Of a DNA stretch of 13,230 bases, positions 6,001 through 9,000 are shown piece by piece; the stretch's first letter is position 1, and every line of letters begins with the position of its first letter. Location of the stretch: the IMG/VR virus record IMGVR_UViG_2563366990_000013; one strand, written 5' to 3'. Made by a program: the position numbers. The DNA is from a virus. Lineage: Duplodnaviria; Heunggongvirae; Uroviricota; Caudoviricetes.

Positions 6001-9000
6001 AGTAACCCCGTACGACGCAGTACCCCTTTGACCAGGGCAACAACACGCTCCCATGCCGCCACGAATTTATTCGGCTGTTTCTCCGCCATATGTGCCAGAA
6101 ATTCACCCGCCTGTACTTCCGGTGATTCCTTACCATAGGACGCATCAACCTTACGCCAGGCTTCACGGATGGTGGCGTTATCACTGTCGCGGGTTTTCAG
6201 CACGGTTTTGATAATCGTCTGATATTCCGCTGGCGTGACAACATGCTCCATGGCATGGTGGATAATCTCGTGACGCAGCTTCTCGCGTACGGTCCGCCCG
6301 TCAGGGATGTTATCCGCCACCAGGACTATTTCTCGTTTATCCGGACGATAGAATGCGTGCACCCTGCCGTAACCATCGAACGATTCGCCCGCCAGCGCTT
6401 CAGCCTCTTTCTGTGACTTCACCACACGGACCTTCAGGTCACTGTCCTTAATGCCGCTCATCACGCCACGGGCAACCGCTTCAACCTGCGGGACCGGGCT
6501 GCCTTTGGCTTCCGCCGCACTACGGTTAACATCCGAAATGAGATTGCCTTCAGGTGTGCGGGTTACGCCCTTACGGGAATAAAACGCAACGCCCTTGTCC
6601 GTCTCACGGGTTTTCAGCGTACTGAACAGGTGATCGAATGCATCACGAATACCGCCATCCAGTTCCGCATTCGTCGGATAAGCCCAGGTGTTATCTGTGT
6701 TGTGCTCAGGTGCCTTACGGATATTGACCAGATAATCATTCTCCACGCCAGCCATACGCGCCTTATCCTGAACATAACGCTCAAAGGCACGCGCCGCCAT
6801 TTCAACATCCGTTGACCAGTACGGTTTTGAGCGCACCTCATCAAGAAGCGCTGAACGACGCGGCATGTCACTGTTTTTAATGGCCTGAATCACACCTTTA
6901 AAAGCGTCGTAAACCTCCTGACGTACCGGATATTCAGCATCAACATACCTGCCGTCTTTAAATATGCGCCTGACACGCTGTGCTTCCGTCATAAAGTCGC
7001 CACCTGACGTAATTTTCCCGTCATTGGAAACGTCATAACGACCAAAATAATTATCCAGAGAATGGAACCATTCGTGCGCCAGCGCACCCGGTCCGTTACC
7101 TTTTGTCAGGTTGATTGCCACCTCACCCGGCTCATAGTGTGCCGCCGCCTTACCCTTACCACGGGCACCAAATGCCAGGCCAAGACGACCGTTCAGGGAA
7201 AGCGCTTTTGTCGGTACATTCAGTACTTCCGCAAGGTCATGCAGCGAGTCATAAGCCCGGTTCAAATCAGCCTGACGACGCGGACCTTCCACGTAGTTAC
7301 CAAACTGCACACCACGGAAACCAAACGCATCACTGAACTGCTCCGGTGAAACATCCCCTTTACGGCGTTCTGGTCCGGTACGGTCGCGGTTGGTGGCGTT
7401 ACGCTGCTCCTCACGCGAAATCTCCCGCATATCCTTCACATGACGAACAAGCTCATCACGATGTGAATCAATGTACTTACGCGCATCACTGGCTGACTTA
7501 AAGCCACCTCTCACCCGCATTTTGTTTTTACCGTAAGCGATAAAAATATCGCCACTGCGGGTATTCCGGTAAACGTCAAAGCGGATTTTGTCATCCGGTG
7601 ACGGTGCTGTTTTTTCATCACCTTTCGCCTGTGATTTTTCCTCCTGCTCTGCAAACCAGACTTTCGCCTTTGCCAGTAATTCATCCCTGCTTTCCGAGAA
7701 AAAGAGGTTACTCCCCTTATTGTCCTTATTGCGCAGTGAATAAAGTTTCTGTGGCGGATCGTAACGCTTCCCTCCTGCCGCCTGATACACACCCGATACC
7801 ACCCGATAAGCAGAAGCCCTGTCCATCTGTGAGGGTGGCAGAGTGCGTAACAGTTGCCAGGTATCCGCGTAACGGGAGGGCATTCTGCCTTCCATCCATT
7901 CTGCGAGGCGTTTCGCGCTGACCGTTCCGTTCAGCATTTCCGATACACTGTGTCGTACTTTTTTTACGCTCTCCCCCCAGCCTGCCGTATTGTGTTTCGT
8001 CTTCGCCGGAATATCGCTACGATACAGCGCTATCATTGCCAGAGTGTCAGCATCGGCACCTTCGTTCGCCAGTTTTGCGTAGTCCGGTTTCGGGAACAGT
8101 TTGCTCAGCGGCTGCGTGGCATAATCCCTGTCTTCCAGCGTTTTACCCAGTGTTTCAGCAAGCTGTGCATAACGGTGTTTGGCTGCCCCTTTAATTTCCT
8201 CGCCAAAGTCTTCAATTTTTTTGCCCCTGACTTCACCTCCGCGCACGGTAGATTCCCTGTCAGTAAAGACAGTTGTTTCAGATTCAGGTGCGATTGTCTC
8301 AGGCTGCGGGATGTCACGATTTCCTCCGGCCTGTCGGCGTACTTCTGCCTGCTGTGCGAGCTCAGGCAGTGAGTCCCGTACAGTGCGGGGAAGTGATTCA
8401 GGCTGAGGCATACGAACATTACGCGCAATGTCAGGAGCCGGTAGCCCTTCACGTACCGGTGCTGTCGCGTTCTGCGCATCCGGTGACGGCAGACCACGAC
8501 GAACTATTTCACCCTCGAGTGTTTCCCCCTGGCGACCAGCGGCGTTTTCCGGTGCCGGAGCACGTCCTTTCTGGAAACTCTGGCCCTTAACCTCACCGGT
8601 TGTGGTAAAACGACCACCACGTCCGGCCTGATTCTCATCCGGCGTACGCGCCACCTCTCCCGGTAACGGATATCCCTGTCCGGGATGAATATCGCCGGGG
8701 GCGGGCAGACGCGGACGCTCAGTTAACTCCTGTGCTGTCGGACCGGCATCACCCTCAGCCATCTGTGAACGTACAAGCTCCTCCGCCATCGGCGCGTTGC
8801 CACGGGCAAGGCGGGCCTGTACCTCCGTATCATCCCCCGTGAAACCACGGAATCGCGGGTCACGCATGAACGCGGGCTGCTCCATCGGGTCAGCATCAGC
8901 AATACGCTCTCCGTCAGCCAGGGTGTTAATGGTTTCCGTTGCCACATCTTCAGAGAACGCAGGATTATCCATTTCAACGGCATACTGATTCTCGCCTTTC

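Follow-up and report, generated by a model that had tools for sequence, protein, structure and literature searches.

The question raised by this locus is whether a short HEWFH motif, encoded within a very long phage gene, marks a genuine metallopeptidase and, if so, what such an enzyme would do for the phage. The locus is a stretch of 13,230 nucleotides from the IMG/VR virus record IMGVR_UViG_2563366990_000013 (Caudoviricetes), referred to as the window, whose dominant feature was a minus-strand open reading frame (ORF) translating to 2795 amino acids (aa). Positions 6000-8500 of the window showed 98-98.5% DNA identity to the late region of short-tailed Shiga-toxin (Stx) phages, with 186 matching records, among them phi24B, VT2-Sakai/Sp5, Stx1 and Stx2 converting phages and the PA series. 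The giant ORF itself had ~98% DNA identity to at least 156 Stx phage records. Its orthologues were Sp5 ORF80/ECs1242 (2793 aa), phi24B gp47 and VT2-Sakai orf71, and the gene is labelled 'hypothetical protein' in GenBank. In Sp5, ORF80/ECs1242 is essential, and the heads of the deletion mutant are filled with DNA and look normal, without tail-fibre label. Moreover, four Pfam domains were found in the giant protein (LPD5, LPD1, MuF_C and LPD38), which are hallmark domains of 'polyvalent proteins'. On the evidence presented here, the motif probably belongs to an active zincin-type metallohydrolase domain of the CLCA_X family, with metal binding and peptidase activity as predicted properties.

Translation bore out the position, frame and strand given for the motif in the original prediction: positions 7062-7076 of the window encode, on the minus strand, HEWFH as residues 1283-1287 of the giant protein, in the context NLTKGNGPGALAHEWFHSLDNYFGRYDVSNDGKITSGGDFMTEAQ, and the plus strand at this point was full of stop codons. 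For a protein of such composition (1.4% His, 7.3% Glu) the expected number of HExxH motifs was 0.04, and two were observed (aa 1283 and 1551); at least two appeared in 0.08% of 20,000 shuffles of the giant protein. A search with aa 1190-1450 resulted in 395 matches, and conservation was measured in an alignment of 86 homologues as well as in a second alignment of 150 regions, made up of the giant protein and 148 representatives, one per 50%-identity cluster and mostly giant proteins. Both H1283 and H1287 were kept in 84 of the 86 homologues and in all 150 representative regions, while E1284 was kept in 85 and 149 of them, respectively, which is the conservation of these three residues that the original prediction had proposed to check. 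The small residue claimed ahead of the first His (A1282) was small in every one of the 86 homologues, W1285 was present in 85 of them, and D1290, which completes the pattern HExxHxxD (HEWFHSLD), was found in 83/86 homologues and 148/150 regions. High conservation extended beyond the motif to H1262 (85/86 homologues and 149/150 regions), E1264 (85/85 homologues), Y1368 (85/85 and 149/150), E1374 and R1378 (each 85/85 and 150/150), A1377 (150/150 regions), E1381 (80/85 and 150/150) and to G1252, R1254, G1255, I1270 and N1271 (about 149/150 regions), with R1216 and D1229, on the N-terminal core helix, being invariant. Furthermore, a profile search against 1.84 billion cluster representatives (50% identity) recovered 6967 clusters at E ≤ 1e-3, with 5027 at E ≤ 1e-30, and the best 150 matches were mostly proteins of 2000-5000 aa carrying the module in mid-chain.

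The segment from aa 1040 to 1450 was modelled with AlphaFold2 using the 86-sequence alignment, which resulted in a mean predicted local distance difference test score (pLDDT) of 89.1 and a predicted template modelling score (pTM) of 0.79. After the LPD5 part, which formed strands and helices (model positions 76-131), the elements appeared in the order helix, three strands (aa 1248-1251, 1261-1264 and 1269-1272), HExxH helix, insert of 73 residues and glutamate helix. This order is that of the zincin core as defined by Iyer, Burroughs, Anand, de Souza and Aravind (2017, J Bacteriol 199:e00245-17; hereafter Iyer 2017), namely an N-terminal helix, a three-stranded sheet and two C-terminal helices. 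The last strand (INL) is likely the substrate-binding edge strand, and the insert (aa 1299-1371) was length-variable and gapped in the alignment, variable insertions that separate the pair of C-terminal helices being described by Iyer 2017. The glutamate helix opens with E1374-M-A-A1377 (ExxA; window 6792-6803), with R1378 and E1381 on the same helix. The confidently modelled fold was that of a zincin core and not of a non-peptidase, and together with the conservation of the motif and the CLCA_X profile match described below, it supports the zincin-fold metallopeptidase of the original prediction. In Pfam, the HExxH half (aa 1200-1359) had no model, and HEWFH fell in the gap between LPD5 and LPD1. 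LPD1 carries the Pfam name of a large polyvalent protein-associated domain; according to the predicted structure, it makes up the C-terminal half of this zincin domain, holding the glutamate helix and the C-terminal helices, and is no separate domain; the Pfam boundaries cut a single catalytic domain in two. LPD5, in turn, appeared nearly always just N-terminal of the zincin domain and was found together with LPD1 in most homologues.

The third metal ligand had been sought among the acidic residues downstream of the motif, which held only in part. D1290 was conserved, and D1297, D1301, D1308 and E1312, which fell in a variable-length, poorly aligned insert, were not conserved. The most likely third ligand is E1374, 87 residues downstream and outside the quoted context, assigned because its invariant EXXA starts the next conserved helix, as in gluzincins. 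These are defined by HExxH on the active-site helix and (E/H)xx(A/F/T/S/G) on the following glutamate helix (Cerda-Costa and Gomis-Ruth, quoted in the ArdC paper). The ligands are H686/H690/E735 in lethal factor (LF), H201/H205/E229 in ArdC and H148/H152/E211 in Escherichia coli MtfA, where they lie in 148-HEXXH-152 and 211-EXXA-214 (PMC13482132). By analogy with these three proteins, H1283 and H1287 would bind the metal and E1284 would be the general base. The E. coli MtfA sequence also reads HEVAHKLD, with an Asp at +3 like D1290 that is absent from its listed ligands, and on this comparison D1290 is probably a second-shell or pocket residue, or alternatively a ligand. Moreover, Y204-x6-E211-x2-A214-x3-E218 of MtfA is paralleled by Y1368-x5-E1374-x2-A1377-x3-E1381 in the giant protein, Y1368 being a candidate transition-state stabiliser. 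Differently from the assignment of E1374, the conserved Asp was proposed as an extra ligand by Lenart et al. (2013, PLoS One 8:e62272; hereafter Lenart 2013). A metzincin or aspzincin pattern, HExxHxxGxx(H/D), was also considered and rejected, as HEWFHSLDNYF has Asp and not Gly at +3 and no His or Asp at +6.

Family membership was established with the NCBIfam profile NF041907 ('CLCA_X family protein'), which matched aa 1181-1436 with an E-value of 1.2e-43 and 149.4 bits over profile positions 3-245 of 250. In Lenart 2013, CLCA_X is a family of predicted zincins from phages and plasmids, often located in proteins >1000 aa, and its active-site consensus is written as HExxHxxxD; the alignment (Fig S4) includes residues 1195-1467 (of 2806) of the Enterobacteria phage VT2phi_272 protein gi 315274348, and Table S2 lists proteins of 933W, VT2-Sa and Stx1/Stx2 converting phages. 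The family and the giant protein have in common the HExxH, the conserved Asp and the phage or plasmid origin, and an orthologue of the giant protein is already in the family alignment; the family model derives from stand-alone proteins of ~250 aa, whereas the copy in the giant protein is embedded. In addition, the phage-type metallopeptidase (MPTase) clade reported among polyvalent proteins in Iyer 2017 fits the domain feature by feature: the His ending strand 2 is H1262, the Asp three residues after HEXXH is D1290, the Glu on the second C-terminal helix is E1374, the inter-helix insert is variable, and the domain is embedded in a multidomain phage polyvalent protein, here with LPD5, LPD1, MuF_C and LPD38 in the 2795-aa ORF. 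Pfam departs from the clade in holding LPD5 and LPD1 as separate 'unknown' domains, with the HExxH half lacking a model. The domain is that of the CLCA_X family and of the phage-type polyvalent-protein MPTase clade alike, and as a protease prediction it was already published in 2013 and 2017, since the VT2phi_272/933W/VT2-Sa orthologue is in Lenart 2013 and the clade in Iyer 2017.

As to known enzymes, the best structural matches were LF, PPEP, MtfA and neprilysin, all of them zincins that cleave proteins or peptides, and judged from the model the domain is structurally closest to the LF/PPEP/MtfA group, without demonstrable membership of MEROPS M34 or M90. LF and PPEP (M34) and MtfA (M90) have the ligands His, His and a downstream Glu, as predicted for the giant protein, and MtfA further shares the HExxHxxD spacing and the Tyr...E-x-x-A...E pattern of the glutamate helix; in contrast to both families, the giant protein has the 73-residue inter-helix insert, an extra invariant His/Glu in strand 2 and an FGARG loop. 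The C-terminal domain of ArdC (MPTase-PolyVal, PF18818) is likewise a gluzincin with HExxH and Glu helix on a mobile-element protein sent to the recipient, but it is plasmid-borne, fused to a single-stranded-DNA-binding domain, and its protease site is dispensable for anti-restriction. ArdC had been considered as support for a host-defence target and was dropped, E229A being unaffected in anti-restriction. Pfam at E ≤ 10 on aa 1201-1396 matched LPD1 alone and no peptidase family, PF18818 included. Foldseek against the PDB gave nothing significant (the weak zincins collagenase G, MMP9 and Wss1 at E 0.6-2), and a BFVD search returned only relatives (phi191 fragments and other polyvalent or MuF-like proteins) with weak 'metalloprotease' matches and no functional clue. 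The matches obtained by sequence search of the PDB, a dehydrogenase and the poly-Q of huntingtin, were discarded as spurious. As no sequence homology to a solved enzyme was found, the zincin assignment is structural and motif-based.

Several points weigh against an active peptidase domain of the CLCA_X family. Searches of the PDB with phmmer (segment) and hmmsearch (86-sequence profile) recovered no peptidase, and hhalign against E. coli MtfA, taken as a single sequence or as a 23-sequence alignment, aligned only the HExxHxxD helix with a probability <1% (0.5% for the 23-sequence alignment, a shallow profile whose homologues were all >70% identical). The choice of E1374 over D1290 or H1262 relies on motif and topology, and the spacing from Tyr to Glu is 6 in the giant protein versus 7 in MtfA. 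The 149.4 bits also fell below the NCBI curated cut-off of 260 for naming by NF041907, and the name would not be assigned; homology is clear nonetheless, since this cut-off was set for stand-alone members of ~250 aa. Furthermore, experimental work on any member of CLCA_X or of the phage-type MPTases was not found in the literature, zinc binding and proteolysis thus being predictions, and for ArdC, which is the only polyvalent-type MPTase with a solved structure, E229A behaves like the wild type in anti-restriction and a substrate was not found. Finally, the extra invariant residues (GVxFGNW, R1216, D1229, FGARG, HYE and NDYL) exceed the need of a generic protease and could point to a different substrate class.

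The original prediction had taken the giant protein to be injected, a premise backed by its orthologue in phi24B. Mass spectrometry of purified virions showed this protein, gp47, to be abundant, the cryo-electron microscopy (cryo-EM) map does not show it, and it has been proposed as an encapsidated ejection protein (bioRxiv 10.64898/2026.04.10.717836). In the proteome supplement, gp47 was among the most abundant non-capsid proteins of the particles, with peptides detected from both termini and from the HEWFH region, including the tryptic peptide GNGPGALAHEWFHSLDNYFGR, which carries HEWFH itself. The whole-protein counts of gp47 in the four top gel slices were 2188, 1686, 1187 and 1260 peptide-spectrum matches, declining thereafter, and these four slices were all above the one where the 80-kDa portal peaks. 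Such a spread would correspond either to several large size species or to a smear of the ~305-kDa protein; the gel was run on material kept for six months, over which time another virion protein degraded. On the other side of the size range, many of the 395 matches were complete proteins of 330-450 aa, consisting only of LPD5, the zincin segment and LPD1 and having all catalytic residues. Two such genes, in metagenomic phage contigs L002 and L004 (Table 1) of two lineages, were each surrounded by a long series of small ORFs without known function. Each gene was downstream of an HTH_17 regulator gene, with the terminase/portal/protease module in divergent orientation, and this placement resembles that of early, non-structural genes. 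Further stand-alone copies had as neighbours an InPase polyvalent-type gene, in a 2.9-Mb bacterial contig, and SNF2 and RtcB genes, in a 131-kb contig.

In the mechanism proposed for an active zincin domain, the 2795-aa protein would be packaged in the capsid and ejected with the DNA, so that the enzyme would arrive ready-made in the infected cell and act on protein after leaving the capsid. Zn2+ would be held by H1283, H1287 and E1374, with E1284 activating water as general base; D1290, H1262 and Y1368 would line the pocket, in ligand orientation or oxyanion stabilisation, and the substrate would bind as an added beta-strand along the INLTK edge strand. Because LPD5-zincin-LPD1 also stands alone among early-type ORFs, without a giant polypeptide to process, action in trans would be favoured, with a host protein, or else further parts or copies of the polyvalent protein, as the conserved target. 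Provided that the domain is an active zincin, action in trans would be the first choice, if somewhat short of an even chance, followed by self-processing as a real but smaller prospect, and by other roles, for which the chances would be rather low. In a more specific and tentative form, LPD5-zincin-LPD1 may be a self-contained effector protease acting in trans on one conserved bacterial target, a defence factor or an envelope/DNA-entry factor. The module would then enter pre-made within the giant protein ejected by Stx phages and be expressed from an early gene in other phages, and the large set of invariant residues would reflect a single specific substrate. Host-defence or envelope targets and self-processing are already listed as options in Iyer 2017.

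Alternatively, the domain might serve mainly to cleave the giant protein in which it lies, within the capsid or right after ejection, into pieces that act separately: an N-terminal region, the domain of the second HExxH, MuF_C and a C-terminal region with LPD38. For polyvalent MPTases, Iyer 2017 puts self-processing first among the hypotheses and gives the processing of P1 DdrB as a precedent, although N4 vRNAP and ArdC are delivered unprocessed according to the same work. It would agree with the mid-chain position of the module in most of the best 150 relatives and with gp47 spectra in four slices above the portal peak, which would fit several large fragments; however, the latter came from the aged sample in which another virion protein had degraded. 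Moreover, the stand-alone versions of 330-450 aa in early-gene clusters have nothing large to process, and self-processing as the main function is considered doubtful, if tenable.

Other podophages, such as T7 with gp16, have ejection proteins with wall-degrading domains, and the zincin domain might degrade peptidoglycan cross-links or envelope proteins so that the ejected protein could form a channel across the periplasm. A role of this kind comes from the 2026 phi24B preprint (bioRxiv 10.64898/2026.04.10.717836), in which peptidoglycan degradation was proposed for a 'Muf-C metallopeptidase domain'. However, the activity is placed there in MuF-C (aa 1751-1845), which has no HExxH, the two motifs being at 1283 and 1551; the structural neighbours LF, PPEP, MtfA and neprilysin cut proteins or peptides and are not of the peptidase types known for cutting cell-wall cross-links, and the stand-alone copies appear among early genes expressed in the cytoplasm, with no export signal noticed, though no search for one was made, all of which makes an envelope enzyme very improbable. 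A zincin-like fold without proteolysis, performing other metal-dependent chemistry or holding a structural or binding metal site, is unlikely too, if less so. The invariant polar residues outside the classical catalytic set are unusually many, MtfA is a binding anti-repressor (PMC13482132), and the protease site of ArdC is dispensable for its known function; against this, the full gluzincin set (H, E, H, ExxA and Tyr) is invariant, a general-base Glu would be needless in a module that only binds, and the best structural matches are true endopeptidases. As for a functionless HExxH arising by chance in a long protein, the motif is short and roughly half of its database occurrences are outside known zincin families (Lenart 2013), but this explanation is refuted, to near certainty, because the motif is conserved: with 0.04 expected, it is near-invariant over thousands of diverged relatives and sits on a helix of a confidently modelled zincin core.

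The value of the assignment lies in correcting the annotation rather than in discovery, the domain having been predicted in 2013 and 2017. At present the enzyme is hidden behind 'hypothetical' in GenBank, 'unknown' for LPD5 and LPD1 in Pfam and MuF-C in the cryo-EM preprint, while the analysis places the predicted catalytic centre at aa 1283-1287 and E1374, takes LPD1 as the back half of the peptidase and finds the module standing alone elsewhere. The phages concerned spread Shiga toxin genes, and the gene is essential in Sp5. If the tentative effector protease were true, identifying its substrate would bring to light a new step of takeover or anti-defence and a place at which the spread of Stx phages could be attacked. 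As the family counts ~7000 clusters at 50% identity, a single substrate, once solved, would allow thousands of giant phage proteins to be annotated.

Table 1. Features of the window and stand-alone genes of the same module. Positions are those of the window unless a contig is named; residues are those of the giant protein.
Feature	Positions	Strand	Residues or length	Remarks
Giant ORF	2535..10922	-	2795 aa	Virion-packaged 'polyvalent' protein; from ORF list, translation, DNA identity and Pfam
LPD5	7326..7775	-	aa 1050-1199	PF18799, E 4e-45; small alpha/beta domain plus linker
Zincin (gluzincin-type) catalytic domain, predicted	6603..7325	-	aa ~1200-1440	CLCA_X / phage-type polyvalent MPTase family
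N-terminal core helix	7221..7286	-	aa 1213-1234	Model helix 174-195
Three-stranded sheet region	7107..7181	-	aa 1248-1272	LAFGARG, AAHYE, INL; model strands 209-212, 222-225, 230-233
H1262	7137..7139	-	aa 1262	Conserved strand-2 His that is predicted to point towards the active-site pocket
Active-site helix (LAHEWFHSLDNYFGRYDV)	7029..7082	-	aa 1281-1298	Model helix 242-259; holds HEWFH
HEWFH	7062..7076	-	aa 1283-1287	H1283 and H1287 putative zinc ligands, E1284 putative general base
D1290	7053..7055	-	aa 1290	Conserved; Asp of E. coli MtfA at the same offset
Variable insert between catalytic helices	6810..7028	-	aa 1299-1371	Beta-hairpin and two helices, model elements 280-322
Y1368	6819..6821	-	aa 1368	Invariant Tyr, six residues N-terminal of E1374
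Glutamate helix (DVEMAARAFERYVQDKARM)	6753..6809	-	aa 1372-1390	Model helix 333-351
LPD1	6606..6845	-	aa 1360-1439	PF18796, E 1.8e-23
MuF_C	5388-5672	-	aa 1751-1845	Pfam
LPD38	2874-3491	-	aa 2478-2683	Pfam
ORF upstream of giant ORF (transcription sense)	11008-12270	-	420 aa	
ORF upstream of giant ORF (transcription sense)	12281-12532	-	83 aa	
ORF upstream of giant ORF (transcription sense)	12542-12994	-	150 aa	
ORF downstream of giant gene	931-2175	-	414 aa	C-terminal half matches PHROG tail adhesin/tail protein families
Stand-alone gene	L002 10001-11011		336 aa	Metagenomic phage contig
Stand-alone gene	L004 8001-9002		333 aa	Metagenomic phage contig

The second HExxH of the giant protein (HEIIHH, aa 1551-1555; window 6258-6272, minus strand) is located ~270 aa downstream of the first, in a region of aa ~1500-1640. 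Among the giant protein and 13 local giant homologues, H1551 and E1552 were present in 14/14, and 9/14 had the second His at +4 and 9/14 had it at +5, which may mean that HEXXH is mixed with HEXXXH, a variant that Iyer 2017 describes. The strand-turn-strand-HExxH of this second motif was paired by hhalign with the first domain at a non-significant probability of 3%, and Pfam Peptidase_M76 matched the region with an E-value of 0.14 only.

Regarding the neighbouring genes, PHROGs gave no known function for the three upstream ORFs. Judged from gene order and comparable length, their apparent counterparts in phi24B are gp48, an 86-aa protein and gp50, all three of which were detected in virions, so that a cluster of small virion proteins of internal or ejection type seems to end with the giant gene. 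The 414-aa ORF downstream matched phrog_17426 (E 4.5e-15).

Within the giant protein, a long stretch of the N-terminal third (aa ~440-1000; window ~7900-9600, minus strand) was rich in Glu, Pro, Ala and Gln and had a low-complexity look, with recurring 'GLP.P' or 'LP.P' pieces such as RGLPSPDAQNATAPVREGLPAPDIARNVRMPQPESLPRTV; it had no family match and is probably a disordered linker. The C-terminal third (aa 1881-2795) matched PHROG families of other giant phage proteins, one of them labelled 'DarB-like antirestriction' (phrog_10089, E 1e-26), and it contained hydrophobic Gly-rich stretches, possibly membrane segments, which bear on the proposed role as an ejection conduit. Finally, the same giant gene of Escherichia phage phi191 is split in UniProt into several fragments (385, 534 and 106 aa), 97-100% identical, which suggests that this ORF was frameshifted, mis-assembled or mis-called in its record.

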